Counted from the stretch's first letter, positions 1 to 45,398 are shown. The stretch: 48,864 nt of DNA from a virus (IMGVR_UViG_3300017758_000014:1-48864); one strand, 5' to 3'. Numbers and translations: made by a program. The notes: generated by a model from the letters alone, not told the origin.

Positions 1-68
1 TGAAATTTACCGATTATCTCAGCACCATTAATTAATTGAATTGTAACAACATCATTTACTTTAAGCAT
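1..68 (-). CDS. 5' part of a small protein, possibly Sm/LSm-like fold (truncated by window edge)
   Basis: Not in the ORF track. Read manually from ATG at 68: MLKVNDVVTIQLINGAEIIGKF..., overlapping the stop of the upstream gene. The VTIxLxxGxEIIG pattern resembles Sm-like proteins of T4-like phages. Confidence 0.5.
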   Translation of the reverse strand, partial: MLKVNDVVTIQLINGAEIIGKF

Positions 69-720
69 TTAAAATCTCATATTCATTATTGTAATTATGT
101 TTTGCAACACATCCCTCAGTGTTTTGTATTGTACTGAATGTGTCTCTTGCCTCACAAACCCATGGAGAATATTCTTGAATCCACGGGAAGTAATGTCTAT
201 TTAAAAATAGATCAGTAGGTCTTGCTCGTTCTCTCGCGGTTTCCATTAATGCAAATGCACCCTCTGGTTTGATTATGTATCCATGGGCACCACCGAAATA
301 TTCTTTTTGTGATAAGTTTCCGACACCTATGAAGTTTGGTATCTCAAACCCACCATACGAAGGTCTTGAGAAAGTCATCACTTTCATGAAATTTACATCA
401 ATAGGAATCTTACCAGTGACAATAGCATCATGTTCAAACACAACTGTTGGTATTCCTGAAAATGCACACATCTCCCAAATTTTATAATGCGACATAAACG
501 CTGCTAAAACATTGTAGAGTCTTGAGTATTTCTCTTCAAACATGTCAATGTTCATGTTCATACCCATCATCATTTCCCTTGGGCGATCTGCTGGTGTCAC
601 TGCTTTAAATTTTTGTACATCAATCTCTCCCCACCTCTTTGCGGATCTGATGCATTTATTTGCTGCATTTTGAGACTGTTCGTGATCTTCAATAGCAATC
701 ACATATGCTTCATAATTCAT
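61..720 (-). CDS. Glycosyltransferase, GT25-like
   Basis: FKAVTP, AAFMSHYKIWE, VVFEHDA and GAHGYIIKPEGA...PTD match the GT25 (Lex2B/LgtB) pattern SH..lW...ilEDD...aY.i...A. Confidence 0.8.
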   Translation of the reverse strand: MNYEAYVIAIEDHEQSQNAANKCIRSAKRWGEIDVQKFKAVTPADRPREMMMGMNMNIDMFEEKYSRLYNVLAAFMSHYKIWEMCAFSGIPTVVFEHDAIVTGKIPIDVNFMKVMTFSRPSYGGFEIPNFIGVGNLSQKEYFGGAHGYIIKPEGAFALMETARERARPTDLFLNRHYFPWIQEYSPWVCEARDTFSTIQNTEGCVAKHNYNNEYEILNA

Positions 721-723
721 ATC

Positions 724-1419
724 TTATCCTGTCGTCGTAGACGGTAATCCTTGAACCTTAGTGTAAAAGGTTCGAGTGACTCCCATTTTAGGAATAATTT
801 GTTTACACATTAGTGCATCATTTGGCCATCCGCCAAATCGTTTTGCCGCATCAAGAACATTTTTTGCTCCATCAGGTTTTATTATATAGGCACTGTTTCC
901 AGCAAGACCTTGCGGAACATTGAACTCATCAATATCCGGAACCTGCTGAATCTCTTGAGGGTGTTCTTTTATCATATCGTGAAACAGTTTTGCTTTACGT
1001 GTCGCCATTAAGGGGTTATTGATACCAATGATGTCGAATTTAGATTCAAGGATATAATCATAATTTAATTTCTGTAAGAACAAAGAATCATGTTCGAGTA
1101 CAAGAATGGGTTCATCACGTTTGATACATTCATGCCACAATCTAAAGTGACTCATGAAACAAGCAATACGACGTTCTTTATACGCTGTTGGGTATGATTT
1201 CAAAGTCATCCCCGAAGCAATATCAATTTTCTCACCTTCCCAAGGATATGTCCACTTGATACCATTACCTGCCAAAGATACGTTTGCAAACTCAGGTGTT
1301 GTCGCTTCAAACCTTTCTACTTTAAAATCGTTCTTGACTTTCTTAGAAGATCTCTCTAAATTTTTAAAACCTGTTTCGGATGTTTCTACACCTTTAACTA
1401 CGATAGCAAATGCTTTCAT
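724..1419 (-). CDS. Glycosyltransferase, GT25-like
   Basis: RIACFMSHFRLWHEC, ILVLEHDS and GNSAYIIKPDGAK...PND motifs; paralogue of the neighbouring gene. Confidence 0.85.
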   Translation of the reverse strand: MKAFAIVVKGVETSETGFKNLERSSKKVKNDFKVERFEATTPEFANVSLAGNGIKWTYPWEGEKIDIASGMTLKSYPTAYKERRIACFMSHFRLWHECIKRDEPILVLEHDSLFLQKLNYDYILESKFDIIGINNPLMATRKAKLFHDMIKEHPQEIQQVPDIDEFNVPQGLAGNSAYIIKPDGAKNVLDAAKRFGGWPNDALMCKQIIPKMGVTRTFYTKVQGLPSTTTG

Positions 1420-2150
1420 TTCACCACTCCTCTTTTCACTTGATCGAGGAATATCCCTCTACCATTACCGCCAGCAAAATGGACAAAATTCACATTAGAG
1501 TAATCATCTGTTCTCACATATACACCAGTCATATAATTCCAACTCTCATCAAGAACAAAAGATTTATCAGGATTCAGAGAACGCCATTCATTCATATATG
1601 CTTGATCAGTATGAATCATTGGTAGGTCTCTGTTTATAATTTTCTTTTGAACAAATTTACATATTTTAGAACCTGTTGGTCCATCAACGATTTGAACTCC
1701 ACCGTTGATAAATTTATCATGGGGAAGTTTATATTTACTTCTAAACTCTGCCCATGGTTTCCCTAGATCAACACAACCAGCGTGACCTTTGACCTCAGGA
1801 ACTGGTGAAGCGTGATCAGGTATCCAAACATCACAATCTAAAGAAACAATCCTGTCATACCCTTCTATCCCCATATTTAAATATCGAATCAAAGTTGAGC
1901 ATTTGTTTTTACCACCACCCGAATAATCATGATCTTTTGACTTTGTATTTCTATTGAAATATGTGATGTCAAAATCTTCAGGATACTCGGTAATCATTTT
2001 GTAATCGTAATCGTGTTTTTCTGCATAACGTTTAACACTAGGGATACAAATATCACGAAACAATTTTGCACTTTCTTTTGCATCAGGAATGCTGTCGTAA
2101 ACATATGCAGCAGTGTTCCCCACTTGAACCTGTACAACCAACGTTTTCAT
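1416..2150 (-). CDS. GT-A fold glycosyltransferase (GT8/GT34-like)
   Basis: DxD motif (SLDCDVW), INGGV, TDQAYMN, WNY and FVHFAG. Start placed at ATG 2150 (ATGA overlap with the upstream stop). Confidence 0.75.
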   Translation of the reverse strand: MKTLVVQVQVGNTAAYVYDSIPDAKESAKLFRDICIPSVKRYAEKHDYDYKMITEYPEDFDITYFNRNTKSKDHDYSGGGKNKCSTLIRYLNMGIEGYDRIVSLDCDVWIPDHASPVPEVKGHAGCVDLGKPWAEFRSKYKLPHDKFINGGVQIVDGPTGSKICKFVQKKIINRDLPMIHTDQAYMNEWRSLNPDKSFVLDESWNYMTGVYVRTDDYSNVNFVHFAGGNGRGIFLDQVKRGVVK

Positions 2151-2947
2151 TTTAGCATCTCCAAACACTTTTCATACACCATATCAACACTTATGTATTC
2201 GTTTGCTTCGAGGCAATGTGGGCAACTGTATGTTGCTCCGCATGGTGTTTGAGGGTGATCATATCCTATGTGTTTATGGATATCATAAGACATTTGACGA
2301 GGCATAATTAACCCACCCTGAATCACTGTCATTGGTATCTCAAAACCAGCAAAGATATGCATAAGCAATCCATCATAAGACGCACCACCCTTCGCATGCG
2401 CCATAACAGAAACTGATCTTCGGATATCAGTGATTTGAGTGTTCAGCGCATTTTTTAGATCAGGTTCTCTATAATTATTTCCAGGGTGAATTCTCACAAT
2501 TGGAATATGCTTTGAAAGTTTATCAGTAAGTTCTTGCCACTTTTTAAATCCCCAGTTTTTATTCTCTGAAAAAAATGTAGATTTGTAATCGGGATTTATC
2601 AAGAAAAAACTCTCTGGGATTCTAAGTTCTCTCATGGCATTTTTTGCCCACGACTTTTCTTCTTTACTTAACCTGATTCTAAATGGTGTTGGTTTGAAAT
2701 CATTCCATACCATTTTTTCACCTAATATGGTTTTCTCTTTTCCTTTAACATAATAATCTACATGACGGTCAGAATTGCGGGAGGTGTCTCGCGCATTGAC
2801 TGTTAATCCGCCATCTTTAACTAGGAACTCAACGTTTTTATATAAAGGACTCCACCCAGAACCATATAGAGGTGTAATCTTTTTTCCAGTCTCTTTGTAT
2901 ATTTCCTCTGCTTTTCCTAGAAATATAACATCATCACCTAATCCCAC
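2147..2947 (-). CDS. GT-B fold glycosyltransferase, GT9 (heptosyltransferase)-like
   Basis: N-terminal GLGDD, KNWG..KW..L, DGLLMHIFA and a C-terminal PCG...CPHC..I.VD.V, all typical of GT9. Confidence 0.75.
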   Translation of the reverse strand: MGLGDDVIFLGKAEEIYKETGKKITPLYGSGWSPLYKNVEFLVKDGGLTVNARDTSRNSDRHVDYYVKGKEKTILGEKMVWNDFKPTPFRIRLSKEEKSWAKNAMRELRIPESFFLINPDYKSTFFSENKNWGFKKWQELTDKLSKHIPIVRIHPGNNYREPDLKNALNTQITDIRRSVSVMAHAKGGASYDGLLMHIFAGFEIPMTVIQGGLIMPRQMSYDIHKHIGYDHPQTPCGATYSCPHCLEANEYISVDMVYEKCLEMLK

Positions 2948-3651
2948 AACTCTGTCCTCGCAAAATATTCTATTTCACCTTGTGATGGAGTTTCACAATA
3001 ATTCATTTTTGCACCTCTCCGGAATATTTCCCTTGCCATAAAAGCAACGTTCCAGTCATCCGGAAATCTGACATCATTATACCTGTTTCTGATGTTAATG
3101 TAAACATGAATCTTTTCTATTGACATCAAAAACTTAGCAATATGCATCATGCCCGAGTCTGCGCCAATATGATAATCAGCACCTGCCATTATTGCTATAG
3201 TATCATCCAAAGGCATTTTTCCGTTTCCGACATCAATTAATTCATATCCAAGATCCTGATAGTAATGCTGGATTTTACCGATACGATGCGGTTCAAGTTT
3301 TCGATACTTTTGTTTTGCGTCCCATTGCGTGGTGATATATTTCTCAGGCAATGGTATTTTTGTTTTTGGAATATTTAATGCAGGTGGAATCTTTTCAAAT
3401 TGTTTTGAGCAATCGCTATAAAATTTTTGATCTTTAGTGTTACTGTATTCTATAACTGTGCCACTGATGGGTCGATTTACATGAACATAACCCCAACCGA
3501 TAAAATTCTTAAAATAATCTAGTAGAGGAGAATCTGGAGAGTAGATATTAACAGGTTCTCTGTTGATGACACTTATCATGCATCCAAGAAAAACTGCATC
3601 TAATTGATCACCCAAAGGTTTTGGGCGTTGTAAAACATCTAATGTAATCAT
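2938..3651 (-). CDS. GT9-like glycosyltransferase
   Basis: PLGDQL at the N-terminus and L..TIAIMAGADYHIGADSGMMHIA (GT9 DSG.MHlA signature). Confidence 0.7.
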   Translation of the reverse strand: MITLDVLQRPKPLGDQLDAVFLGCMISVINREPVNIYSPDSPLLDYFKNFIGWGYVHVNRPISGTVIEYSNTKDQKFYSDCSKQFEKIPPALNIPKTKIPLPEKYITTQWDAKQKYRKLEPHRIGKIQHYYQDLGYELIDVGNGKMPLDDTIAIMAGADYHIGADSGMMHIAKFLMSIEKIHVYINIRNRYNDVRFPDDWNVAFMAREIFRRGAKMNYCETPSQGEIEYFARTELWD

Positions 3652-4322
3652 GTTCCGTATGACGTGCTAAGATTAACTTCAGCGAATTTAACAGGTGATG
3701 GGAGTACGACTTGAATATTAACATTGTATGAGTTAATCATAAAGTCACTTTGATCGAAACCATATACATCTACAGCGGAAAGCAACCTCTTTGCTCCCTT
3801 CGGTGTTAATGCATAAGCACCTGTTCCTGGTGCCATATCAGAATCTTTCCAAGAATTTTCCCTGTAATATTTTAAAGGATAATCGTCAGGAAGATCCGTG
3901 ACTCCAAACCCAGACCATTCAAAATTTTTGTATTGTTGAAGAGCAAGTTTATTTGGTGGTCGAAATACAAACTCACCGTTTAAAATAAGATATTCATCGA
4001 ACTCATAGTCTGCCCATGGCATAGTGACTACTGCATCATGTTCGAGAAATATCATTGTTTCGTTTTGTTTGACGACCCTTTCCCAAAATTTGATATGGTT
4101 ATGAGCGCATGCACATTTTGTTAAAAACCTATTAGCATTTTCTTTTTTAAAATTATGGAGTCTGCTCTCTTGAATTATATTACGCTGAACATGAATTGTG
4201 TTTTTTGTAAATCCTTCTACAAGTTCAGGTTTTAATCCATTCTTCCACGCTGATTTGTAAGCAGCGTTTGCTTGTTTTTCGGAACCTTCGTGCCCTTTAA
4301 CATAAACAATTTGCGCTTTCAC
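3648..4322 (-). CDS. Glycosyltransferase, GT25-like
   Basis: CACAHNHIKFWE, IFLEHDA and GTGAYALTPKGAKRLL...SD motifs. Confidence 0.8.
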   Translation of the reverse strand: MKAQIVYVKGHEGSEKQANAAYKSAWKNGLKPELVEGFTKNTIHVQRNIIQESRLHNFKKENANRFLTKCACAHNHIKFWERVVKQNETMIFLEHDAVVTMPWADYEFDEYLILNGEFVFRPPNKLALQQYKNFEWSGFGVTDLPDDYPLKYYRENSWKDSDMAPGTGAYALTPKGAKRLLSAVDVYGFDQSDFMINSYNVNIQVVLPSPVKFAEVNLSTSYGT

Positions 4323-4948
4323 TTTTTCAACCTTATAATATAAGAATCAGGTTCTCCGGATTTTTTACGAAGATCAAACTTTACGATTTTAAGATCTGAC
4401 ATCTCAAGAGTAGTCAAGAATTCATTATTCACTGCTGAATTATAGACCTCAGGTTTTGCACGCAACCAATAATGGTCTAGTTCATCACCATACATGATAT
4501 GAAGTGGCCAGACATCTTCGATGAAATATTCACCACCATCTGCTAAAAAAGGACTCGCTTGTGTAAAGGTTAGCATATTTGCTAGTGGGGTGTGTTTACC
4601 ATCATCTATGATGTAATCAAACTTGATATCCTCACCGAATGCTTCTTTAATTTTTTCACCAAAGTTTTCACTCGTAGAGTCTGCTTTAACAAACTTGCAA
4701 CGATCAAATTTATAAGGTTTGATCGTTTCCATAGTAAACCGTTCAAAAACATCAGCACCATATAAGTTAGCATTTGGAAAATACTTATGGAGTGCCATCG
4801 TACTAGAACCTTGGTAAACACCAATTTCTAATATATTAATTTTTTGGTCTCTGCGTTTTTTAAATGATTTCTCATAAACTTCTTCATAACCATGCTTTGA
4901 TGTTTTATCAGTTTGAAATAAATTGAATAAATCACCCAACTCAGACAT
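4319..4948 (-). CDS. Class I SAM-dependent methyltransferase (sugar O-methyltransferase-like)
   Basis: TDK...HGY...Y, ILEIGV..GSS, FDYIIDDGKH and GGEYFIEDV; resembles rhamnosyl/mycinose O-methyltransferase-type enzymes. Confidence 0.8.
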   Translation of the reverse strand: MSELGDLFNLFQTDKTSKHGYEEVYEKSFKKRRDQKINILEIGVYQGSSTMALHKYFPNANLYGADVFERFTMETIKPYKFDRCKFVKADSTSENFGEKIKEAFGEDIKFDYIIDDGKHTPLANMLTFTQASPFLADGGEYFIEDVWPLHIMYGDELDHYWLRAKPEVYNSAVNNEFLTTLEMSDLKIVKFDLRKKSGEPDSYIIRLKK

Positions 4949-5583
4949 TATGTTCTCCTAATGTAAATATTATCATAACCAAATCTTTTGATATGTTTAT
5001 ACCCCAAACTATCTAGAAGTCTGTGTGAATGTTTGGAAGGTTTTGTTGGATGCTCATATTTCGTTAAGAACTCAACCATAATCACTGGAGAGTTATTAGT
5101 TAAAGTTTCGAGTGCTCCATTCAAAACAAAATACTCATAACTCTCTACATCGATTTTTATAAAGTCGATATTGATGAATTCAAAACTATCAAGCGTCTTG
5201 ATGTCTATCGTTCTTGTTTTCGTGCTTTCTAATTTCATCCACTTTTCTCTTGCCTTATGAGGGACAATAGTGGAACCGCCAGTCTTTTTTTCCATTATGT
5301 ACATGGTCTCGGTTTTTTCTTCATCACCTAATCCATATGGATACACGCGAACGTTAGGAAGATCTCGAGTATTTAATTCTGTCCAATAATGAAACGATGG
5401 TTCAAATGTAGAGACTTGTGTGAAGTGCTCAGCAAACATACGAGACATTGCACCCATATGCCCACCAATATCAAGAGCATGTCTAGTCTTTACAAGTTGA
5501 GATTTCGAAAACTCCCATGCTTTTTTCTCATCCGCATAATCTCTTCTTTCGATATCTCCAGGTGGTGATTGAAAATTAAACAT
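4948..5583 (-). CDS. FkbM-family methyltransferase
   Basis: ALDIGGHMG, FEP, TLDSF, IDFIKIDVESYE..VL.GA and PVIMVE. Confidence 0.9.
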   Translation of the reverse strand: MFNFQSPPGDIERRDYADEKKAWEFSKSQLVKTRHALDIGGHMGAMSRMFAEHFTQVSTFEPSFHYWTELNTRDLPNVRVYPYGLGDEEKTETMYIMEKKTGGSTIVPHKAREKWMKLESTKTRTIDIKTLDSFEFINIDFIKIDVESYEYFVLNGALETLTNNSPVIMVEFLTKYEHPTKPSKHSHRLLDSLGYKHIKRFGYDNIYIRRT

Positions 5584-6364
5584 CCACTATCCTCATAAGT
5601 TCTTCGACATTCTCACCTTTATTGGGAAGTTTGTCTTTCAAGAAAAAGTGCACAAAATATGCGTCCTTTAAATTCTTATTATCTATAGCAGTGTACAATG
5701 TATTATATTTCCATGAGAGTGGTTGCTCAACCATATTCTCTTTTCGAACCCAATAGTTCAACAAAGTTTGATCAGTCGACCACTTCCATGCTCCCTGTCC
5801 ATCAACAAAGTCTTTAAACTCAGCACGCTGAATAAATTCTTTACCGCTATCCCCACGAAGATATTTCACTATTTTTTTATCCATGAGCATAAGACCCATG
5901 TTATAAAAACGACCACCACTTTTACCGAATTGCCAATCAATCTTATTGAGCGGTTGGTATTGCATCCGAGTGTAATTTACAAGTTTTTGTTTATACCAAT
6001 CGAGCAGTGGAAGGTCACGTTCAAGCACACCTGCGAATTCAGTATCGTCATTCAGTTCTTCAAAAATGTTTGGAGCATCTGGTCGAATCCAAATGTCTGC
6101 ATCGACAATACAGATTTGATCGTATGTATCCCAATGATCAAACGCATTTTCTTTTTCGTAAATAGGGAGGAACCCACCATATTTCTCATAAGACTCTTTG
6201 CTTCGATTAGTCACGAAGACATCAGGTTTGATTTTCATGATAGGGTGTTTTTGAATTCGGTGGTCGATTCCGTGACGTTCACAATATTTCATCACGGAAT
6301 CTGTACACCAATCATACAATTTAGAAGGTGCACCAGTGTACACCTGATATATCAATCTTTTCAT
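5576..6364 (-). CDS. GT-A fold glycosyltransferase (GT8-like)
   Basis: VDADIW (DxD), YNMGLM, TDQTLLNY, KYN and FVHFF. Start moved to ATG 6364 (MKRLIYQ). Confidence 0.8.
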   Translation of the reverse strand: MKRLIYQVYTGAPSKLYDWCTDSVMKYCERHGIDHRIQKHPIMKIKPDVFVTNRSKESYEKYGGFLPIYEKENAFDHWDTYDQICIVDADIWIRPDAPNIFEELNDDTEFAGVLERDLPLLDWYKQKLVNYTRMQYQPLNKIDWQFGKSGGRFYNMGLMLMDKKIVKYLRGDSGKEFIQRAEFKDFVDGQGAWKWSTDQTLLNYWVRKENMVEQPLSWKYNTLYTAIDNKNLKDAYFVHFFLKDKLPNKGENVEELMRIVDV

Positions 6365-7446: not shown

Positions 7447-7475
7447 ATAAAACTCCTCATCTCTATTATACAATG

Positions 7476-7504: not shown

Positions 7505-7513
7505 GGATTTTCT

Positions 7514-24391: not shown

Positions 24392-24395
24392 AACC

Positions 24396-28230: not shown

Positions 28231-28242
28231 TATTTTTTCTCC

Positions 28243-29754
28243 TTATTTATACGATATAACGACATTCAAATCAGATCCTGCTGTCGAAGAACCAATCTGT
28301 GTTATGTCAATAGTTAGATAGTCACCTTCAGCGACTGATAAGTTTAGACCTGTTGTAACATCAGTGGTAGAACCAGCAGCGATGTTGAAAGTTTGTATTG
28401 ATGTCCCATTTTTCTTTAACGTCATATTTAGTGCTGCTCCAGCAGATGAAGTCGCAACATGTGTTCTTATTTTCGTAATGGTTACAGCACGAGGAGAATA
28501 CCATCTTGCAGTACCAGTGTTCACAGTAAGAACACCATCTTGAACAAATGTAGTGTTATTCTCTTTTTGTACATCCGTATTTGTAGAGATTATACCTTCA
28601 ACCTTTGCGGAATCAAGAGCACCTGACACAAACGTTTCGCTTGAATCAAGGATATTTTTCTCTTGCATAAATGCTTTCATTCTATTTTCATTTATGGAAT
28701 TTACACCTATTTCTTCTTTAATACGATCTACAAATGAGGTGGTTTTATCCATATATTCTCTAAGGTCTTGTGCGACAAATTTACCTTTCGCCTCATCAAA
28801 CGTTAGACACATCTGACTCTTTATAGATGGAAGATCCTTTACAGGAACTTCAGTAGCATGCCCTTCTTGAGAATGCTGTAGATAAATTATATCAATCCCA
28901 CTGCCGTCTGAATCTACTTTAAGATCTTGAATTGTGATAGTACCACGCATTGCAGCATGCACACCACATTGATATGTTAGTGTATCAGGCGCATCAGCAG
29001 GAACAATAAACGTCATTGTTGCGTTATTATTTGCTCTTGAATTTGTAACACCAGTTGTGTATTCACCAACGTAGTTACCAGAAACAAAGTTAGCACCATC
29101 ATCTGTCGAAAGATAAATCGGATGTCCGCTTGTTGTTGCATCCATAACAAACTGATATGTGTTGCCTCTATACAATGGACCGAGTGGTGAATTGTTTCCT
29201 GTTCTAATTCCAGTAAAAACATATGCTCCTGAAACAGCACCAATATTGTATGTGTGCGTTGAAGTATTCAATGTTGGTATTGTATAACTAGTTGGAACAG
29301 ACCATGTTAGTCTTTGCGCTCTTGTTGCAGAATCAGTTCCAGACGTGTCTGTTACTCCAGCAAAAGAATAGTTTCCGCTGTCATACGTTACCCAATCAAC
29401 GAGGTTTGCTGATCCTGCCTCTTTAACCCATTTCAAAAATATTTTATGAGTTTGTGTTGATTCGCCTCGTGTTCTAAATGCAGTAAAATTATCTAGAGTA
29501 TATGTTCCTGCTCTGTAAATAGGAACATCGTTTTGTGGTTGCATAGTAATTGTGACTCTTTCATATGGAAGAGTCGTCGGTTTCCATGACCATTTCCAGT
29601 CAGGCATACCTCCTGCTGAATCTACATCAGCAGCAAAAAGTAATGTTTCTGGTTCGATCGTTTGATCAATCAAAGCATCAAAGGCAGTAGATTTAATATC
29701 GCCTGAAGAATCTTCAATCAGCGATGCCATTTGTCTATTTCTTGATATGGGCAT
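28243..29754 (-). CDS. Virion structural protein with cupredoxin-like domain
   Basis: LYRGNTYQF...GHP...F.VP.DAPDTL.YQCGVHAAMRG, plus a C-terminal beta-sandwich ending GDYLTIDITQIGS..AGSDL.V. Confidence 0.7.
   Translation of the reverse strand: MPISRNRQMASLIEDSSGDIKSTAFDALIDQTIEPETLLFAADVDSAGGMPDWKWSWKPTTLPYERVTITMQPQNDVPIYRAGTYTLDNFTAFRTRGESTQTHKIFLKWVKEAGSANLVDWVTYDSGNYSFAGVTDTSGTDSATRAQRLTWSVPTSYTIPTLNTSTHTYNIGAVSGAYVFTGIRTGNNSPLGPLYRGNTYQFVMDATTSGHPIYLSTDDGANFVSGNYVGEYTTGVTNSRANNNATMTFIVPADAPDTLTYQCGVHAAMRGTITIQDLKVDSDGSGIDIIYLQHSQEGHATEVPVKDLPSIKSQMCLTFDEAKGKFVAQDLREYMDKTTSFVDRIKEEIGVNSINENRMKAFMQEKNILDSSETFVSGALDSAKVEGIISTNTDVQKENNTTFVQDGVLTVNTGTARWYSPRAVTITKIRTHVATSSAGAALNMTLKKNGTSIQTFNIAAGSTTDVTTGLNLSVAEGDYLTIDITQIGSSTAGSDLNVVISYK
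28244..28251 (-). promoter_or_regulatory. Possible T4 late promoter
   Basis: TATAAATA formed by the final codons TAT AAA TAA of the upstream gene. Confidence 0.4.
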
Positions 29755-30327: not shown

Positions 30328-31659
30328 TTATGCTCCGAGGATGTTGTCCACGCGGAAGATACGATAATATTGGTTTGTCTTTGCTGCTGCAAGACCAGAT
30401 GCTGGTGCTGCTCCAACGTATGGATTTGAGACCATGCCGTAGCGAGTCTTGAATCCAATTTTTGGTTGGAAAGTGTCTTCACCAACCGCACGCACCATTG
30501 TTAATGGAACGTATGGGCAATAGAAGATACCAGCGTCATATGGGTTTGTACCCTTATAACCAACGTTTACATAGTCTGCTGTTGCATATGGATCAACATA
30601 TACACGCATACGACCGTTCATTACACCAGCGAATGTGTTGCCTGTGTCATCAACGTTCAGGTTTGTTGACAATGCTGGAGCATAGTCAAGCATGCCTGAT
30701 GCTGCAAGTGCAGATGCTACGTCAGAAGAACAGACCATGAAGTTACCTTTGCCCCGACGTGTGTCTTTAGCAATTTGGTTCGCTTCGCGCTCGATCTGCA
30801 TGATCAGACCTTTGAACTTCTCAACTGACCAGCGACCGTCTGCATCTGTCTGTACGTCGAAGATACCATTGATTGCTGTGTTACCAGTGCCTGCACCAGT
30901 TTTTGCCTGTGAGTTGATTGTGCGAATTACTTCACGGTTGATTTCCGCCATGATTTCTGTTGACAGAATATTCGCTAGTTCTGTTTCTGCGTCAAGACCA
31001 TGAATCGCTTTCAAGTCCTGTGCAAGTTCTAGAGTGTATTCTGCTTTCAGCGCACGTGACTTTGCAGTCACTGTTGCTTTTTCAATGGTGAAACCCATTT
31101 CAGCAAACTGCTCTGCTGCTGCTCCACCCAACTCTTCTGCTTCTGCAGTTGTGTATGGGTCGATGCCTGCCAATGGATCATTACGCTCGTTGTCGATGCT
31201 TGAGTCGCTGTTACCATCTGCAATACCTGCTAGACCTGATGGATCTGCAGTTTGTGTTGTTGTGTTTGAATCGCCTGAGAAGTTAGCAATTGCTTCGTTT
31301 ACTAATGCTTCTGTTCCGACGTTTGCACCTGATTTTTGTGTCTTATACTGTGACTTCATTGCGAAGATCAGACCAGTTGGACCTGACATTGGCTGAACAC
31401 CACAGATATCGTATGCCATTAGGTTTGGCATTGCACGACGCACAAGTGCGATTAGTACTGGGTTCCAGTTTGCAACTGAACCAGTGTTGTTTGCAGGAAC
31501 TGCTTCGTTCAACTGTGCTGCTTGCTCAGCGAAGTCACGCTCCTGGTTTTCGAGAATTGCAGCAGTTACTGCTTTACGATGGTTATCTGTGATCTTACCT
31601 GCTGACTCTTCGTTCAGTACAGGTGCCCACTTTTCCATCAAGTTATCGTAAGATGACAT
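30328..31659 (-). CDS. gp23: Major capsid protein
   Basis: LVRRAMPNL.AYDICGVQPM.GPTGLIFAM, KSRALKAEYT.ELAQDLKAIHGLDAE.EL, YCPYVPL and FQPKIGFKTRYG. Confidence 0.99.
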   Translation of the reverse strand: MSSYDNLMEKWAPVLNEESAGKITDNHRKAVTAAILENQERDFAEQAAQLNEAVPANNTGSVANWNPVLIALVRRAMPNLMAYDICGVQPMSGPTGLIFAMKSQYKTQKSGANVGTEALVNEAIANFSGDSNTTTQTADPSGLAGIADGNSDSSIDNERNDPLAGIDPYTTAEAEELGGAAAEQFAEMGFTIEKATVTAKSRALKAEYTLELAQDLKAIHGLDAETELANILSTEIMAEINREVIRTINSQAKTGAGTGNTAINGIFDVQTDADGRWSVEKFKGLIMQIEREANQIAKDTRRGKGNFMVCSSDVASALAASGMLDYAPALSTNLNVDDTGNTFAGVMNGRMRVYVDPYATADYVNVGYKGTNPYDAGIFYCPYVPLTMVRAVGEDTFQPKIGFKTRYGMVSNPYVGAAPASGLAAAKTNQYYRIFRVDNILGA

Positions 31660-35607: not shown

Positions 35608-35619
35608 CCATAAGTTTAT

Positions 35620-36158: not shown

Positions 36159-37913
36159 TTACACCGTGCCTACGACTTCTTCGAAGTCTACACCAGAACG
36201 AACAGCAACAAAATTGAGTGTAACGTAGTTAATAGACCGAGCAGGTTTGATGAAGATATTCGCAATAAATTCATTACGATCTACAACTGCTGCAGTGTTA
36301 TTAGTTTCATCACATACGACCTTGAAGTCTGTGATACCACGACGACCCTTTACTTCGCGAAGCACAGGTTCAATAATGTTTACGAATTCGGCACGAGTAA
36401 ACTCATCATTGAATTCGAACATAACCTGCTCAGCAGCACGACCAATTGCACGCTCGAGTACCAAGAAGAGGCGACGAACGTTGATGCGGTCAAACGCTGA
36501 AGGGCGACCAAGTTTAGTCTTATCACCGAACAACAGTACACCCTGACCAGGAATATTGGCGATTGGGTTTACACTTGCTTTGTACAATGTATCACGCTGC
36601 GATTTGGTCGGTGACCAAGAAATCGCTGTGATGCCAAGATACTGACCACGACGTGAACCTGCAGGTGAGAACCATGGGGCACGATTTAAGTCTGTCGCTG
36701 CCATAATACCTGCTGTAGAAGACGCTGCAGGGATATGGATATATTGGTCGTTGTACTTATCGTAGACCTTCAGGAAGTTACCGTCATGAACCAAATAAGA
36801 GGAGTTCGTGAAAGTATTTGCTGTTGTTACGATGTTAGATGTGATTGTTGCGGTGTTAGTGAGTTTTACAACATCTGTACGAGCAGGTGATGCTGCAACA
36901 ACGCAATCTTTACGTGTTGATTGAGCAGTTGAGATCAAGTCGTTTACAATTGTTGTTTGATCAGTGCGAGAGTTCATTGAAGGAGCAATCAAGAAATCTA
37001 CCTCTACAATGTCTTTATCTTCAAGCAAATCAAACCCTGTAAGATATTCTGTTGTAGTTAGTAGTCCTGAATTCGCACCTTTAGCGAAATCAAAATCTGT
37101 ATCTGTAGTAAGACCAGGAGAGAAATTATCACCTGAGTCAATAACGCCATTGCCACGTGCTACACGATAGTCTGAATCAAAGTCCACAAAGTGAACATAA
37201 TCAGAACGTGTATTAACAATGTCTTTTGCAAAAAGAGTAGTTCCATCTGCATTCTTCGCATCTGAAGCAATAGACATGAATGGATAAGTTTCAAGAACAG
37301 TACCTTTTGTTCCTGTGAACTCACCTTCCTTATCGATAACAACAAGATGAATCTCGTCATTAGATGCGTTCCGCTTTGAAGCATAGTCTGATGTTGCAGG
37401 TGCTGCATCAAAATCTTTTGCATATGCCCAAGCATTAAATGCTGTTGTGCTTGGTGGGCATATTGAAATTGATAGCGAGTTACCCAACTCACCAGGATAA
37501 CGTGCGATGAATGTGTGTGAATCTGAATCTAACGCACCTTCTTGCGCTTCGAAGTCAGGAGTATTCTTTACCAACTCTGTGGGTAAAGTAGCATCGTTGT
37601 CTGTTGCCAACTGACCACGAATCGAACGTGCGTTTAGTGCTGCAGAAGTTACTTCACGAACGACTTGGAGTGATCCTGAGTAGCGTAAAAAGTATGCTGC
37701 AGAATGAAAATCTATTGTATTGTCAGAATCAGGAGAGGCAAAAGTATTAACGAGACTGATCTCATTATCGATCAATGCCCTTTGCTCAACTGGACCCCAA
37801 CGAAAGTTCCCCACATATGCGCCAGTAGTCGACTGAACGTTTGGAACGCCACCAGTCAGATCTATTTCTTTGACGACAACCGCTGGGGATGCAGACGGTG
37901 TTGAAAGTGCCAT
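36159..37913 (-). CDS. gp18: Tail sheath protein
   Basis: SP.V.VKEIDLT, F.WGP, PWFSPAG..RG, AFDRINVRRLF and IKPARSINY..LNFVA. Confidence 0.98.
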   Translation of the reverse strand: MALSTPSASPAVVVKEIDLTGGVPNVQSTTGAYVGNFRWGPVEQRALIDNEISLVNTFASPDSDNTIDFHSAAYFLRYSGSLQVVREVTSAALNARSIRGQLATDNDATLPTELVKNTPDFEAQEGALDSDSHTFIARYPGELGNSLSISICPPSTTAFNAWAYAKDFDAAPATSDYASKRNASNDEIHLVVIDKEGEFTGTKGTVLETYPFMSIASDAKNADGTTLFAKDIVNTRSDYVHFVDFDSDYRVARGNGVIDSGDNFSPGLTTDTDFDFAKGANSGLLTTTEYLTGFDLLEDKDIVEVDFLIAPSMNSRTDQTTIVNDLISTAQSTRKDCVVAASPARTDVVKLTNTATITSNIVTTANTFTNSSYLVHDGNFLKVYDKYNDQYIHIPAASSTAGIMAATDLNRAPWFSPAGSRRGQYLGITAISWSPTKSQRDTLYKASVNPIANIPGQGVLLFGDKTKLGRPSAFDRINVRRLFLVLERAIGRAAEQVMFEFNDEFTRAEFVNIIEPVLREVKGRRGITDFKVVCDETNNTAAVVDRNEFIANIFIKPARSINYVTLNFVAVRSGVDFEEVVGTV

Positions 37914-39928: not shown

Positions 39929-40864
39929 TTAGTGTCTCTTAAATCCTGTCGGTGGCGCATAAGTTGTATCATTACCACACTTGATTGTGACATCGATAGA
40001 TCCACTTGAATCACCTGCATTATCATTTAGACCTTGCGGTTCGAATCCAATTGACCAGAAATCACCTGTTCTGCTTCCTGATAGAGCAGCACCTTTTGTC
40101 AAAATTGTTGCACCAACACCACCGCGACCAGAAGTTTGGTTTGCGTTGGTGTAATGATCAGGATTCATATCAACCATTGTGGAAGAATCGGTCGGATTAC
40201 CCCACTGACCGTTGTAACCGACAAACACGCGACCTTCATTTGTTGCGTTTACATTGTTATCATATGCAATCATGATAATGTCATTCGCTTTTGTATCAGA
40301 GTCTGCACTACCAGATGTCCACTGGTAAGTACTGTTCCCCAAAAGTTCTGACACCACGCGATCATTAAAATCAAAGAACATTGTACGACCAATATTAGTC
40401 TCAAATGCAGAGGATAGATTCCAGTTTGTTGGAGTAAAAGTAAGGTTTTGTCCTACAGCACCGCCTCTTTGAGAAATGCTATTCACATGGATTTCGAAAT
40501 AATGCTTTCCTTTTTTCACAGGAGCAGACTGAATATGATAGTCTATTTCCGAATTAAGTGGTCCACGCATTGCATAGGTATCACTATCATAATCAAAGTG
40601 CATAGTGACTTGTCCATCACTATCTACATCATGCGTATCTGGTCCACCAATTTGATATGCAGGAGGCAATGTTCTGCCTGCAGGATCAAACGTGATTTGA
40701 CGTGACAGGTTTGGATAGTTTTTATCCATCAGGCGAAGAACATCTTGCGCACCGATATCAATGAATGATCCACTAAATGCGTTCAGGTCAATAGTGTTTC
40801 CTATCTTATCAGCGAAGTAAAACGCCATAGAAACTTTTTGTCCGTTTACTTTAAAATTTGACAT
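39929..40864 (-). CDS. Virion-associated protein with SPRY/B30.2-like beta-sandwich
   Basis: GKHYFEI, DIIMIAYD, G.V.VG.NG.W and C-terminal YAPPTGF, a SPRY-like pattern. Confidence 0.55.
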   Translation of the reverse strand: MSNFKVNGQKVSMAFYFADKIGNTIDLNAFSGSFIDIGAQDVLRLMDKNYPNLSRQITFDPAGRTLPPAYQIGGPDTHDVDSDGQVTMHFDYDSDTYAMRGPLNSEIDYHIQSAPVKKGKHYFEIHVNSISQRGGAVGQNLTFTPTNWNLSSAFETNIGRTMFFDFNDRVVSELLGNSTYQWTSGSADSDTKANDIIMIAYDNNVNATNEGRVFVGYNGQWGNPTDSSTMVDMNPDHYTNANQTSGRGGVGATILTKGAALSGSRTGDFWSIGFEPQGLNDNAGDSSGSIDVTIKCGNDTTYAPPTGFKRH

Positions 40865-40874
40865 CTATAACTCC

Positions 40875-41393
40875 TTAACTGATTGACAATGATGTGATTG
40901 TGATAAGGTGATCTGAATCGATACCTGTAGACGTTGTCACAGTATTCTTACCAGTCAAAGTATAATCGAGGACTGGGTTGAGAAGCAGACCATTTAAATA
41001 AACTTGCGTGACGCCAGAATCAAACAATAATGTGTTACCGTTATCATCAGAACCTGTGAATGCAGTTTGTCCAGAATCAGCGATATAGTCAAATCTATTT
41101 AATGTGATTGTCGGTGTCGCTTCTCTTGCTTGGACATATGCCGAATCAATAACGGTTGATACAAATGCAGAGTCACGAACATCTATCTGCCTCGCTTGTA
41201 TATATGCCGAATCGATTTGGGACGTCACCGTTGTAGTAGATACTCTTGCGCTGACATATGCGGAATCTATCAAACCTAAGACTTGTGAAGAATCAGGAAG
41301 GTTTGTGACCCTAGTGTCTAAATCTGAGAAGTTTCCATCTAGTTCTGAAAAAGATAGTGCACTTCCCTTTGTGTTCCTTAACGTGATTGCCAT
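40875..41393 (-). CDS. Virion fibre/adaptor protein with DSAY repeats
   Basis: N-terminal ITLR..KGS.L...ELDGNF..L, three IDSAY(V/I)xAR repeats and a C-terminal GQT.FTG.DDNG...VYLNG.LL...DYT domain. Confidence 0.7.
   Translation of the reverse strand: MAITLRNTKGSALSFSELDGNFSDLDTRVTNLPDSSQVLGLIDSAYVSARVSTTTVTSQIDSAYIQARQIDVRDSAFVSTVIDSAYVQAREATPTITLNRFDYIADSGQTAFTGSDDNGNTLLFDSGVTQVYLNGLLLNPVLDYTLTGKNTVTTSTGIDSDHLITITSLSIS
41120..41275 (-). repeat. Coding repeats IDSAY(V/I)(S/Q)AR x3 plus DSAFV
   Basis: Plus-strand atatgc(c/g)gaatc occurs three times, near 41136, 41202 and 41256. Confidence 0.75.
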
Positions 41394-41404: not shown

Positions 41405-42202
41405 CTATGTAGCACTATCTTGTGTTAGAACTATATTATTATCAAATCCAAAATCACTATCAGGCATTCCAATAGTGGATAATGGTTTTGGTGTTGTTGT
41501 TATCGTTTCTACTTTGATATCTGAATCGCCTCCAACACCTGCATTCATAAAGAACACATCGGATACGACTTCGCGAACGATATCCCCCTCTGTAATTGCA
41601 CCGTAGAAACTGACTTTCATTTCGAAATCTAGTGTGTAGACGATAGTCCTTCTTTGTTCGATAGATCCCTCATAATCATCCGAGAAAGAAAGTGACTGGA
41701 TGATAATAGGAATATCTTCTTTGAAATCAGGATAGTCTACAGGAAATGGTTTAATTGTTAATGTATATTGCGGATTGAAAGTTGGTACAATTTGTTCTAC
41801 TATTTGTAAAGCATCATCCTGACTTTTAGCATAAATGTTCAATTGAAAATTTATAGTATATGGAACAGGTGAATAAAACTTTTGTCTTTGTTGAACAGTC
41901 GAACCAAAGGTTTTAAAATTGCTGAGTTTTGTCAATTGCCTTGTATTATCATATACAAACGATGTAATTTCAAATGACATTCTTGGCAATTTGATCGCCA
42001 CTTTTGAGTCTGTATCTAAATCAGTGTTTTGCCTAATCCGCTCTAAGAACTTTTTTCTTGGAGCATAAGACAGAGGAACCTTCAGTTGGTTCAATACACC
42101 ACCAGCACTATTTTTACGAATCACATAGATGTTGTTAAACAGTCTTCCGAATAGGGAAACTGATTTACGAATCTTCTCGTGATAAAAATATGTACCAAAC
42201 AT
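41405..42202 (-). CDS. gp15: Tail sheath stabilizer / completion protein
   Basis: YFYHE.IRK...FG.LFNNI, VPLSY.P..KFL.R, LPRMSFEI and DDALQIVEQI.P.F.P. Confidence 0.95.
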   Translation of the reverse strand: MFGTYFYHEKIRKSVSLFGRLFNNIYVIRKNSAGGVLNQLKVPLSYAPRKKFLERIRQNTDLDTDSKVAIKLPRMSFEITSFVYDNTRQLTKLSNFKTFGSTVQQRQKFYSPVPYTINFQLNIYAKSQDDALQIVEQIVPTFNPQYTLTIKPFPVDYPDFKEDIPIIIQSLSFSDDYEGSIEQRRTIVYTLDFEMKVSFYGAITEGDIVREVVSDVFFMNAGVGGDSDIKVETITTTPKPLSTIGMPDSDFGFDNNIVLTQDSAT

Positions 42203-43396
42203 TTATTGATTCTCCGGATCACCGAATGGATTGTTTTCTGTGAAGTCTAAGAAGATATCTGACTGACCGCTGAATATATCGTTTTGTTCAGTTTCTGATA
42301 TTTTATTATTTTCTGTCACAGAGTTAACAGTCAATCCTGTTATCTTGTTTTGCGTTTTATTTATAAGCGCAACATCGTTGATGAAAGTGTGATATTTTCC
42401 ATCATCAGCACCAACATGCGCAAGAGAATAACATCTAGAAGAATCACCTGCTGAATCTAGTCTGATACTCTGAATCTCACCAGTGATTTTCACGCCACCA
42501 GATAATGTTTGTTCTACAGTATCTCCTACAGAATATCCACTATCAATTGCTGATCCACCAATAAATTGAACTGTGATCGCTGAGTCAGTCGTGTAAACAC
42601 CACTATCGGTGAGAGTGATTCCTGTTACTGCGCCACCACTGATCGTTGCAATTGCATTAGCAGAGTCGGAAGTTGTTCCACCAATGAACACGACAGTAGG
42701 AGCAGTTGTGTAATAATTTCCACCCTGTATAAGAGTGAACTGATCGACCCCTCCAGGATGAACTAAACCATTAACAGCGTATCCAGAATCCATATATGGT
42801 GGTCTGTATACAAACGACGCTGTTGCTTTCTTCGGTGCCGCGACGCAAACCTTATACTGATATGCACCATCTTTTTCAATTGCTTGAATATCATCGACGC
42901 CAGTATCGAAATCTTCTCCAGTATATTCAAACAGAGTACAACGCATTTTGTAAACTGGAAGATTTTCTATTTGATAAAATGGTTGCTCATGCTCAACATG
43001 ATTAATCTCAAACATCTTGTTCGTTAATGGAAGGTAAATGAGATCACCTTCGGTCGGACGTGATGTCTGAATATCGTTATCTGGTCGTTGAACTTGAGTT
43101 GCGAAACGAGTTCGTGCGACAACAAAAGTTGCCTCATCTCTAATTTCTACTCCAAACCGAGTAAAGAGATCTCCTTCTCCATCAAACCCTTCAACATTTT
43201 CGATGTACATCTCAATTTTATGTGATGTTGGAAAACGTGAAGTGACATCATCTCCTAGCAAAACATCTTCATTTACAAGATCTCGCGGAAGGTAATATAC
43301 ATCTTGACCATAGATCTTTAATGCCTCAATAACGAGGTCACTGTAAAGATCCATTTCTGATCTTACTTTTTCTGAGAAGTAAAGATTGCGTGCCAT
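42203..43396 (-). CDS. gp14: Neck protein with a beta-rich insertion
   Basis: E.LKIYGQDVYYLPR, F.G.GD...FG.EIRDE.TF, RP.EGDLIY.P, EHE.PFYQ and C-terminal DFTE.NPFG. Confidence 0.93.
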   Translation of the reverse strand: MARNLYFSEKVRSEMDLYSDLVIEALKIYGQDVYYLPRDLVNEDVLLGDDVTSRFPTSHKIEMYIENVEGFDGEGDLFTRFGVEIRDEATFVVARTRFATQVQRPDNDIQTSRPTEGDLIYLPLTNKMFEINHVEHEQPFYQIENLPVYKMRCTLFEYTGEDFDTGVDDIQAIEKDGAYQYKVCVAAPKKATASFVYRPPYMDSGYAVNGLVHPGGVDQFTLIQGGNYYTTAPTVVFIGGTTSDSANAIATISGGAVTGITLTDSGVYTTDSAITVQFIGGSAIDSGYSVGDTVEQTLSGGVKITGEIQSIRLDSAGDSSRCYSLAHVGADDGKYHTFINDVALINKTQNKITGLTVNSVTENNKISETEQNDIFSGQSDIFLDFTENNPFGDPENQ

Positions 43397-43399: not shown

Positions 43400-44155
43400 T
43401 TATCCCAAGAAAAAGTCAGGTGAAAGTTCGTGATCTAATCTGATTCTTTCCCTCAGTCTTTCAATCTCCTGTGTGCCGTCGTCATACAACTGACGACCGT
43501 TAAACGTGACCCCACCTGGAAGTTGCACTCCTTCAAATTTAAGTAAATTTTGACCCCACTGTTGTTTAAACAATGCAGTCGTGTATTCTTTTAACCACAA
43601 GTCATTCCAAATTTGAGTATGTGAAGTTCCATCAACCTTTACGAATGCTTCGGCAACGATGTAATCACCTGCTTTGATATCTTTATCTTTAAACTCACCA
43701 TGAATATAAAGTCTATCCTGATGCCTTGAATATGTTGTTTGAGGAACACCGTTTAAAGTTGAATCAAGCAAAGACAAATATTGTTGCATTTGTTCATAAT
43801 ATGCAAGGTCACCAACAATGCTATGCATGTCAGCGATATCATTTAGATGCATTTGATACTTAATATCGAAGAAATTTATAGAAGATTTGCCAGCACTTGA
43901 TGTAGGGAATAATCTTGTTAGATACATCACATTTGAACTGATAGGGATATACTCATTTGTCACATCAGTCGCCGTGACGAGGTGTTTTAGATAAGTTCTT
44001 ACAATTGCGTCAGAATGATATTCCTGCCAATATTGCAATGCTTCATCGACCCGATCTTCCATCTGGTCTTCATCTATATTTAATTCTAAAACTGGATCCC
44101 CAAGTCGACGTTTTGCATAGTCGATAAGGTCTTGTCTGCTTGCTGGTATCGCCAT
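43400..44155 (-). CDS. gp13: Neck protein
   Basis: P.SR..L.DY..R.LG.PV, WLK.Y.TAL.KQQWG.NL.KF.GVQLPGG. Confidence 0.95.
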   Translation of the reverse strand: MAIPASRQDLIDYAKRRLGDPVLELNIDEDQMEDRVDEALQYWQEYHSDAIVRTYLKHLVTATDVTNEYIPISSNVMYLTRLFPTSSAGKSSINFFDIKYQMHLNDIADMHSIVGDLAYYEQMQQYLSLLDSTLNGVPQTTYSRHQDRLYIHGEFKDKDIKAGDYIVAEAFVKVDGTSHTQIWNDLWLKEYTTALFKQQWGQNLLKFEGVQLPGGVTFNGRQLYDDGTQEIERLRERIRLDHELSPDFFLG

Positions 44156-44183
44156 ATCATATCCTCTTAAACTTCTGTATTGC

Positions 44184-44191
44184 TATTTATA
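44184..44191 (-). promoter_or_regulatory. T4 late promoter
   Basis: TATAAATA in the intergenic gap upstream of gp13. Confidence 0.85.
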
Positions 44192-44195
44192 ACAA

Positions 44196-45398
44196 TTAAT
44201 ATTTCAGAGGCGCAGACCATATCAAATTAGTGGTGTCTGCTGTTTCAGCATAAAGTCTTACTTCGTGAAATGGTTGACAAGAACCAGTCGTAGATCCACC
44301 TGATACCCCTGCTGTACCAGTGTTATGGTAATAGGTTGTGTTTCCGCTTCCATCGTTGAAAACTGTAGAAGTTCCAAACAACCCATACTCCCTAAACCCG
44401 AATGTTAGTGTTGCCAAAGAAGTGTCAGTGAAATTTTCAGTGTCCCTTCTATGATAGTGTGTGTCAGAAGGAAACTGATCTGACGCAGTTCCAGCAGCAA
44501 CATTTGTTGTTCTACCACCCCAGATACCGCCACCAGACGCTCCTTGAGAATCGGGATCATAAAGGTATGCTTGCGCAGGAAATCCTGGGGAAGCATTGTT
44601 ACGACGAATTCCTGCAGCATAAGTACAACTATTGCTATCCCAACAAGTTATATACATTGTGCCATACGGAACAGTTGCCGCTGTGTGAGTGTGTGATCCA
44701 GCACCCTCTACTGCAGTTGTTATATTTCCTGCAAGATGAGTCATGTTTGCTGAAGTATAATTCGCATCATCATCTTCTCTAAATTCAAATACAGGTAATG
44801 CTTGTGCCATTCCACCATATACAGCGTGGACGTGATATGGTGTAATCATTCGCTGAATAGGATTAAACTGATCAATGGTGAAATTCTTCGTCAGAGTTCC
44901 AGTAGATACACCATCGGTCGCAGTAAATGATATGCTGAAATTTGCTATTGTCGCTGAATCTTGAATCTTGATATTAAATTCACTTGAATCTTGTGTAATT
45001 GTTACAGCACTGTCAGCAGCACCTGTCGGGAACAACTGATATCCATATGAAGATATAGAATTATCTGAGTCGGTTGCAATAACAGTATAATTTGCAGACT
45101 CACCCACATTGAAATGATTTTTAAGTGAGAATCCTGCTATACTATCAACAGTCGTGTTTATATTTACAAGACTTGCATTATACCAACCTGAACCATCTGA
45201 GATGTATAATCTAGCACCAGTTCCTGATGATTCAACAAATCCACGATCACCGAGTGTTAAGTTTGCAATTGGTAAAGAATCAAGAGTATCGAATGCAGAG
45301 ACGGTATTGGGTGCCAAAATCGCAGAAACTGTAGCAGAGTCTAAACCAACAGTTCCCATTACCGTTTGTTTGTTTTTTCTTTGTGTCGATAGTCTCAT
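44196..45398 (-). CDS. Virion fibre/adhesin-type protein
   Basis: N-terminal module homologous to the two LamG proteins (LDSLP..NLT.GD, LYISDGSGWYN, TQDSS, F.ATDG) with an unrelated C-terminal domain. Confidence 0.7.
   Translation of the reverse strand: MRLSTQRKNKQTVMGTVGLDSATVSAILAPNTVSAFDTLDSLPIANLTLGDRGFVESSGTGARLYISDGSGWYNASLVNINTTVDSIAGFSLKNHFNVGESANYTVIATDSDNSISSYGYQLFPTGAADSAVTITQDSSEFNIKIQDSATIANFSISFTATDGVSTGTLTKNFTIDQFNPIQRMITPYHVHAVYGGMAQALPVFEFREDDDANYTSANMTHLAGNITTAVEGAGSHTHTAATVPYGTMYITCWDSNSCTYAAGIRRNNASPGFPAQAYLYDPDSQGASGGGIWGGRTTNVAAGTASDQFPSDTHYHRRDTENFTDTSLATLTFGFREYGLFGTSTVFNDGSGNTTYYHNTGTAGVSGGSTTGSCQPFHEVRLYAETADTTNLIWSAPLKY

Follow-up and report, generated by a model that had tools for sequence, protein, structure and literature searches.

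What is the Asp-Ser (DS) motif that recurs in the virion proteins of IMGVR_UViG_3300017758_000014:1-48864 used for, and which gene acts on it? The stretch analysed (48,864 bases; the window) is the entire contig of a T4-like phage. Every gene lies on the minus strand, and the gene content comprises gp13-gp23, gp3, an accessory fibre/LamG block, NrdJ with further replication genes, and an operon of glycosyltransferases (GTs). A reading made from the sequence alone (the sequence-only reading) had proposed that the GTs of the window decorate DS serines across the virion surface with a glycan. Our results support the view that DS behaves as a tag that an enzyme reads on those virion parts that face outwards, its most likely use being glycosylation by an enzyme of the phage. 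The gene that best follows the tag in sequence comparisons is Y, which closes the operon. Judged from its predicted fold and from its co-occurrence with DS tags in two unrelated phage groups, Y probably initiates cytoplasmic O-glycosylation of virion serines at DS tags. The earlier proposal was thus upheld for the tag on outer parts and for glycosylation as its likely use, but not for the window GTs as initiators.

The DS counts of the sequence-only reading were all reproduced on recount (Table 1); gp22, gp21 and RNase H contain none, gp17 one and NrdJ four. Across 27 virion-block proteins (7,823 amino acids, aa), DS occurred 88/50.5 times (figures of the form a/b are observed/expected, the window expectation being corrected for each protein's own composition), which ranked first of 400 dipeptides (P 1e-6). 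The excess therefore survives composition correction, and the control dipeptides SD (60/50.5), DT (42/54.3) and ES (16/24.5) were not raised; nor was NS (34/48.1). DS counts were 9/17.7 in 27 other non-structural proteins, 3/8.6 in six assembly proteins and 11/7.2 (not significant) in the nine GT and methyltransferase proteins. Shuffling of single proteins, named here by their start coordinates where they lack a gene name, gave P values of 0.0004 (40875, 44196), 0.002 (25904, 25647), 0.004 (gp14) and 0.025-0.047 (27955, 28243, 26474), and was not significant for gp15 (0.06), 39929 (0.09), gp18 (0.32) and the whole LamG proteins (0.44, 0.56). At the 88 DS sites, the residue at +2 was Ala 24 times, Asp 16, Ser 14 and Gly 10. 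When structural proteins were selected by composition (T+G minus K+E > 0.06; "T/G-rich"), DS[AD] occurred 37/6.4 times in the window, or ~6x chance.

Metagenomes of seawater and of marine viruses contain the window (20 runs from 12 studies), and its nearest complete records are phage C48C1 (capsid 66%) and then HTVC008M (60%). In IMG/VR, one capsid pattern of the phage group is matched by approximately 900 stored stretches and the gene Y patterns by ~720. We compared 22 same-clade contigs with 11 outgroups. Besides the window, 17 of the clade contigs had a capsid identity of at least 69%, and four that lack a capsid gene were placed via their operon, sheath or gp14 genes. Pooled counts cover 21 contigs, as G012 is a duplicate of G007. 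In T/G-rich proteins, the observed-to-expected ratio of DS was 0.87-2.43 in the clade and 0.75-1.03 in the outgroups. DS[AD] stood at 1.82-7.93x across all 22 clade contigs, with P<0.05 in 20, compared to 0.47-1.84x in the outgroups, with P<0.05 in none of the 11. Pooling gave DSA 436/87 (5.0x), DSD 313/69 (4.5x), DSS 205/95 (2.2x), DSN 116/64 (1.8x) and DSG 1.4x, with DSL (0.91), DSI (0.85), DSV (0.80) and DST (0.90) not enriched. Lys, Arg, Met, Trp, Pro and Gln were depleted at +2 (DSK, DSR and DSM 0.27-0.41x), aromatic or aliphatic residues were favoured at -1, and Gly at +3 was raised 1.6x. The outgroups were flat (DSA 67/71, DSD 56/62). In clade structural orthologs DT was at 557/804 (0.69x) and SD at 1.03x. 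Thus the claimed dipeptide excess is real, but the motif proper is the tripeptide D-S-[A/D/S/N] and not bare DS. Certain relatives have fibres with 33-49 DS, and one fibre of 2,084 aa is saturated with DS. Cytoplasmic DS[AD] sums were 119/178 in the clade and 94/111 in the outgroups, and a test of VrlC-type repeat patterns gave 2 of 71 versus 1 of 112 with a regular expression that was too strict. Serine codons of both families were enriched at clade DS sites (TCN 1.59x, AGY 1.77x), which indicates that selection acts on the protein. A DNA-level cause (GAY-TCN = GANTC, CcrM type) was excluded, since AGY sites were raised 1.77x and reading frames 1 and 2 were not raised. As a separate observation, GANTC is strongly avoided in HTVC008M (43 sites versus 240 expected; 0.78 in Mosig).

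To locate the tag on the virion, core orthologs were grouped into an outer set (gp7 N-part, gp8, gp9-like, VrlC-like, gp14, gp15, gp18 and gp23) and an inner set (gp3, gp6, gp13, gp19, gp20, gp25, gp26, gp48, gp53 and the hub), a split that we take to follow T4 structure. In the clade, outer orthologs had DSA 150/29.6 and DSD 185/27.3, compared to 13/15.3 and 16/14.4 in the outgroups, and inner orthologs had DSA 5/14.6 and DSD 6/16.6. The tail tube gp19 was untagged in the clade (5/11.3). The claim that DS sites are surface-exposed therefore agrees with their excess on outer core parts and their scarcity in inner ones, exposure being assigned via T4 homology. In 16 clade capsid sequences, 41 DS lay inside an insertion and six outside. 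The insertion loop often reads Dx[DN]xD[GS]xI[DA]D, which is presumably calcium-loop-like, and the second DS falls in it. In the window, the gp23 insertion sits between blocks aligned to T4 gp23 residues 135 and 232, and in T4 the protrusions on the surface of the capsid are formed by the I domain (PMC9546572; this and the other sources given by accession are cited for excerpts). A DS lay within the last seven residues of gp15 in 14 of 17 clade orthologs versus 1 of 10 outgroup orthologs, and at this very C-terminal position no helix can follow the tag. In two short relatives (L026, L036) the gp14 insertion is present with 0-1 DS, which shows that the fold does not need DS. The tagging claimed for the virion as a whole held for outer parts but is patchy: the six small tail-fibre-like proteins have 0 DS versus 5.9 expected, and LamG domains have almost none (2/9.9 in clade genomes and 20/38.2 in loci, with an outgroup control of only three domains). 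As a side observation, gp14 is split in L020:10001-11856 into a 198 aa open reading frame (ORF) and a separate downstream ORF bearing the DS-rich insertion, and the same split occurs in L018, L022, L028, L029, L032, L035 and L043.

Over 80 loci, the operon runs in the order A, a variable cassette, B, C, X and Y, with B-C-X immediately before Y in 46 of the 72 loci with enough flank. Where 9 kb upstream of Y were available (50 loci), C and B were each present in 49, X in 46 and A in 40. X (a GT-A enzyme) and Y are not encoded inside the window, where C is followed by a small ORF other than X; with more than the nine genes first described, the operon runs past the window's left end. Public contigs extend at most 3.9 kb beyond this end. 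Contigs sharing their length (2,648) or depth (6.37, 14.4, 25.8) with those covering window positions 1-904 matched pieces of X and Y in three runs, the pieces being located by mapping onto a relative's X-Y stretch. In this genome, C is thus followed by a ~100 aa ORF and then by X and Y.

The proposal that the nine window genes read the tag was not supported. G019 (capsid 35%, contig 17% complete) has A (48-50%), B and C without the tag (DS 45/50.9, DS[AD] 9/7.1), and its fibres of 1,570 and 2,265 aa show no DS excess, and the outgroup S-SCSM2R, which encodes 13 GTs (PMC12801897), is untagged (DS[AD] 8/16.9); six small phages and G032 are tagged without A, B and C. The expected co-occurrence of tag and GT operon among relatives was accordingly found within the T4 clade, where the two are inseparable, but is broken by G019, the small phages and G032. 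As a marker of the tag, gene A failed on G019 and on G009, a strongly tagged contig whose operon begins with another GT, and gene X failed because its sole cultured homolog, in HTVC008M, belongs to an untagged phage. Y gave a single match among 50,697 phage records, in the complete genome of C48C1 (43%), which has one tagged fibre (DS[AD] 15/3.2). This fibre (126305-131011; L082:20114-24820) is built of 88-residue repeats; proximal copies carry DS at four positions, and in distal copies all four become DG/DT/DG/DA with the Asp kept. More distant Y families were found by profile search, one of which adjoins fibre genes of 29-35 kb phages without gp23. All six of these small non-T4 phages (G027-G031 and G036; L730-L739, L749), which are near-complete with one examined for 20 of 29 kb, encode a homolog of Y and contain DSAG 7-12 times versus 0.14-0.31 expected. 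The DSAG sites are spread over 5-8 different proteins each, mostly without T4-like homologs, and DTAG, NSAG, ESAG and DAAG occur 0-1 times. No homolog of A, B, C or X was found in any of the six. Among relatives of one gene of a small-phage module, 23 distant loci without visible Y had DSA 10 versus ~19, a weak control made of fragments, and two loci with Y had DSA at only 5/2.9. G032, a T4-like contig with Y outside the operon and no A, B, C or X in 68 kb, had DSD 21/3.05 and DSA 11/3.1.

Y is a single-domain protein of 199-231 aa, and its model has a predicted local distance difference test score (pLDDT) of 91. The best match of the model among 48,161 chains was Maf (5mu5 residues 271-506; Z 11.2, root-mean-square deviation 3.9, 167 residues aligned, 9% identity), and further matches were CstI (Z 10.0) and mammalian sialyltransferases (Z 6.9-8.4). 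PF01973 matched below its cut-off in 5 of 14 Y members, and PDB sequence searches with the gene A and gene Y profiles gave no match. Y is predicted to carry a MAF_flag10/MptE-like GT-A domain resembling GT29/GT42, and this modelled fold leaves both sugar and phosphate transfer as options.

We propose that the Asp of the tag, as Asp does in proteins generally, caps a turn or the beginning of a helix, by which the Ser is presented; the lineage may have fixed Ser and a small residue after Asp, which would give Y an exposed hydroxyl to modify. Y would transfer a cytidine monophosphate (CMP)-activated acidic sugar from a host or phage pool onto the tag Ser. The GT8, GT25 and GT9 enzymes and the methyltransferases of the window would then extend or vary the glycan, or serve another target, with A, B, C and X as the putative conserved core and the methyl-, sulfo- and pyruvyl-transferases as a swappable cassette. 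Lectin and receptor-binding domains would be left bare, and the glycan coat may shield the particle or alter its charge and stickiness. One possible donor route for Y is offered by two genes at G023 98244-99752 (L429:18244-19752), which we take to resemble a 3-deoxy-D-manno-octulosonate (Kdo)-8-P synthase and a CMP-Kdo synthetase; outside G023 the pair is present in G024 and G006 only. No kinase, phosphopantetheinyl transferase (PPTase) or ATP-grasp gene was found among the 35 of 41 clade-conserved G024 genes scanned, outgroup-common genes lying outside the scan. More tentatively, Y may represent a portable one-gene system, in which a minimal Maf-like transferase reads a tag of 3-4 residues and has moved between unrelated marine phage families, and the T4-like operon makes a variable virion 'serotype'. 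The tag would take the form D-S-A/D in large T4-like phages and D-S-A-G in small phages, and each family would then have written it onto dozens of outward-facing sites.

Several observations weigh against Y-initiated glycosylation of a virion-wide tag. Nine long contigs were recruited by a DS-containing capsid pattern, which inflates the capsid DS count, and the DS[AD] class was derived from the same clade data on which it was scored. Surface exposure of the tag rests on T4 homology and on the assumed inner/outer split. Tag and operon never separate within the T4 clade and so count as one evolutionary event, and the six small phages are mutually related and add a second event, not six. C48C1 has no virion-wide excess (DS[AD] 15/11.9), its tag being confined to one fibre. 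The complete 98 kb G033 (L740-L744), with a distant third Y family, has DSA 4/4.1 and DSD 4/2.8, and only DSSG is raised (5/0.44); its proteins include collagen-like GPQG repeats. Weak Y-like genes (E 2e-15 to 5e-8) also occur in two untagged phages, Mosig (DS[AD] 7/10.0) and HTVC008M. Cytoplasmic orthologs of the clade are no DS-poorer than those of outgroups (0.77 versus 0.82), so that the low DS content of non-structural proteins, previously taken as a special contrast, is close to the ordinary baseline. The fold of Y is shared with non-GTs, namely SteA (Z 10.3, approximately tied with Maf), the MptE kinase (9.3) and thiamine pyrophosphokinases (6-7.5), and Foldseek returned nothing for Y at E<=0.001, with only weak CstII and ST8Sia matches.

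These fold neighbours raise the alternative that Y reads the tag but adds a non-sugar group, such as phosphate, pyrophosphate or a phospho-polyol from a cytidine diphosphate (CDP) donor. A cytidylyltransferase-like gene (PF01467) in all ten long clade contigs compared fits such a donor, as does the range of the fold across MptE, thiamine pyrophosphokinases and SteA (Z 6-10.3). However, Maf and the sialyltransferases align over more residues (159-167 versus 106-145), Y closes a GT operon, and the cytidylyltransferase has no match in the six small tagged phages; we regard a non-sugar adduct as rather unlikely. Still less weight falls on a window GT, most plausibly the GT8-fold gene A, starting the glycan on DS as the sequence-only reading held, which we consider very improbable. 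Gene A is the first and most conserved gene of the operon (2,254 homologs, 40 of 50 Y loci, with none among the 50,697 phage records), and by fold it lies close to enzymes such as UGGT, XXYLT1, LARGE1 and the chlorovirus capsid glycosyltransferase (2p6w/2p73). This has to be set against the untagged, if only 17% complete, G019 with A, B and C, the strongly tagged G009 with another GT in first place, and the small phages and G032, which are tagged without A, B, C and X.

The tag might also involve no enzyme, DS being a structural or metal device (Asx turn, helix N-cap or Ca2+ loop) that became frequent in these marine virions by drift. Short helices or D-x-x-G turns follow many of the sites (Gly at +3 is raised 1.6x), a Dx[DN]xD[GS]xI loop presumably resembling a calcium site often contains the second DS of the capsid, and repeats inflate fibre counts. 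Yet the same folds occur in outgroups without the tag, variants with Thr, Asn or Glu show no enrichment, and C-terminal tags cannot cap a helix. Such a device would explain neither the link to Y nor the strict DSAG that each small genome has in 5-8 unrelated proteins, and we judge this alternative decidedly unlikely. The remaining alternative is that a decoration protein docks on the tag or a host enzyme reads it, and that the GT operon modifies host lipopolysaccharide (LPS). Similar pelagimyophage GT islands have been read as host O-chain modification (PMC7029224), and both GT9 and GT25 count among the LPS families. The Y matches in GTDB, 12 contigs from metagenome-assembled genomes of unrelated taxa, point to no particular host. 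The untagged GT-rich outgroups S-SCSM2R and Mosig speak against this alternative, as do a +2 preference that varies between lineages with different Y subfamilies and the periplasmic location of the Bacteroidota system, and we find it highly doubtful. Glycosylation initiated by Y remains the reading that we favour.

The window does encode the seven GTs and two methyltransferases originally described, namely three GT25, two GT9-like, the GT8-fold gene at 5576, its paralog at 1416, a Methyltransf_24 and an FkbM protein (Table 1). Cassette composition shifts between loci among methyl-, sulfo- and pyruvyl-transferases, epimerases and GT9s, and the two GT9-like GT-B genes of the window cassette are not conserved across the clade.

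Table 1. Features of the window and their DS content. Positions are counted from the first base of the window; starts of single proteins are given where a row groups several.
Feature	Position	Strand	DS content and evidence
Small ORF start, cut by contig end; not gene X	1..68	-	
GT25 'C', conserved core gene	61..720	-	Pfam PF01755; operon order in 80 loci
GT25 'B', conserved core gene	724..1419	-	
GT-A, distant paralog of gene A, variable cassette	1416..2168	-	A-profile match E 2.7e-6
GT9-like, variable cassette	2147..2947	-	Atlas features 0.98, TM 0.89 to PF01075 clusters
GT9-like, variable cassette	2938..3651	-	PF01075 21.6 bits, slightly below cut-off
GT25, variable cassette	3648..4322	-	Pfam
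Methyltransf_24 O-methyltransferase-like, variable cassette	4319..4948	-	
FkbM methyltransferase, variable cassette	4948..5583	-	
Gene A, GT8/GT24-fold GT-A, first gene of operon, clade-conserved	5576..6364	-	Fold match
LamG protein	17260..19764	-	6 DS in N-terminal ~155 aa, 0 in three LamG domains
LamG protein	19768..22317	-	5 DS in N-terminal ~155 aa, 1 in LamG part
Six small tail-fibre-like proteins	23200..25650	-	0 DS
Three small DS-rich ORFs of 85, 189 and 93 aa (25647, 25904, 26474)	25647..26755	-	4, 6 and 4 DS
Accessory virion proteins of 398, 91 (27955) and 503 aa (28243)	26759..29754	-	4, 4 and 7 DS
Major capsid protein gp23	30328..31659	-	Both DS within insertion matching T4 I-domain region
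Tail sheath gp18	36159..37913	-	5 DS, alone not significant
Accessory proteins of 311 aa (39929) and 172 aa (40875), between gp16 and gp15	39929..41393	-	5 and 8 DS
gp15	41405..42202	-	4 DS, one two residues from C-terminus
gp14 neck protein	42203..43396	-	7 DS, all in C-terminal half, in the C-terminal insertion
Accessory protein of 400 aa	44196..45398	-	9 DS

Further features of these regions were noted. Directly before gene A, most clade genomes encode a small membrane protein with an EF-hand-like loop (window 6375-6719). Many clade genomes have a second GT-like gene block inside the fibre region (L436:16145-16852 of G024; G023 33274-36088), its first gene being found ahead of Y in G032 and in the vicinity of Y in C48C1. 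Approximately half of the long clade contigs have PF05118 Asp/Asn beta-hydroxylase genes (L433:343-837 and 7023-7610, G024). Five of the six small tail-fibre-like proteins are paralogs (phrog_11355) that end in G-[DE]-L-A. The 93 aa ORF at 26474-26755 has a TTG start and no homolog among the fetched loci, and may be a remnant.

If Y acts as proposed, an abundant uncultured group of marine phages would have sequon-directed, virion-wide O-glycosylation, and the GT islands of marine myoviruses would gain a testable role other than host LPS change. This would affect the interpretation of virion charge and adsorption, of grazing and of proteomic detection. A cytoplasmic transferase of 200 residues with a short tag would also be a tool largely missing from bacterial glyco-engineering. 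The small DSAG phages (G027-G031 and G036) offer the simplest test system.

Literature searches, with subscription papers and supplements outside their scope, found no account of such a phage tag. Among virus-encoded enzymes, the capsid GT of chlorovirus PBCV-1 (2p6w, 2p73) is a fold neighbour of gene A (E 7e-8, TM 0.45-0.54 by query). Chloroviruses are eukaryotic viruses whose capsid glycans are Asn-linked at non-standard sites, and the fold match to gene A shows no shared acceptor. Virion proteins assemble in the cytoplasm. The Bacteroidota system, as excerpted, is lipid-carrier based and periplasmic, with the sequon D-(S/T)-(L/I/V/T/A/S/M) and Asp at +2 in <1% (PMC12871550). An Asp directly before the hydroxyl residue, with Ala or Ser allowed at +2, is common to this sequon and the phage tag. 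The match suggested by the sequence-only reading nevertheless fails, as Thr is unused (DT 0.69x), Asp at +2 is common (DSD 4.5x) and Leu, Ile and Val are not enriched. GT clusters are found in marine T4-like genomes, where they have been interpreted as modifiers of host LPS or DNA (PMC7029224, PMC12801897); the cultured pelagimyophages and cyanomyophages with such islands have no DS tag and no gene A homolog.

In mycobacteriophages, phage-encoded GTs are reported to glycosylate the capsid and the tail tube, which shields the virion (Freeman et al. 2023, as described in PMC11256854 and PMC12619734); the phage of the window likewise encodes GTs of its own. In the excerpts cited, the mycobacteriophage sites are the C-termini of capsid and tail-tube proteins, whereas here a dispersed tag lies on fibres, baseplate, neck and a capsid loop, and the tail tube is untagged in this clade. 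Staphylococcal SdgB modifies a minimal DSD peptide and, with SdgA, carries out a two-step Ser O-glycosylation (PMC8561734). The Ser within a minimal D-S-D is shared with the phage tag. SdgB and SdgA, however, are GT-B enzymes that use UDP-N-acetylglucosamine (UDP-GlcNAc) on long SD repeats, whereas phage tags are isolated, have Ala as often as Asp at +2 and show no enrichment of SD. The predicted fold of Y is shared with Maf (M. magneticum, PDB 5mu5; PF01973) and with the GT42/GT29 sialyltransferases (CstI 2p56, CstII 1ro8). Mafs are soluble enzymes thought to transfer CMP-activated pseudaminic or legionaminic acid (Pse/Leg) onto flagellin in the cytoplasm (bioRxiv 2022.03.25.485807), and flagellar O-glycosylation is described, in the excerpt cited, as proceeding without a known sequence motif (PMC12871550). 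Maf has 632 aa in three domains, with flanking domains, and its target is a filament protein, modified ahead of assembly; in contrast, Y is a stand-alone catalytic domain of ~200 aa, and its proposed targets are many unrelated virion proteins.

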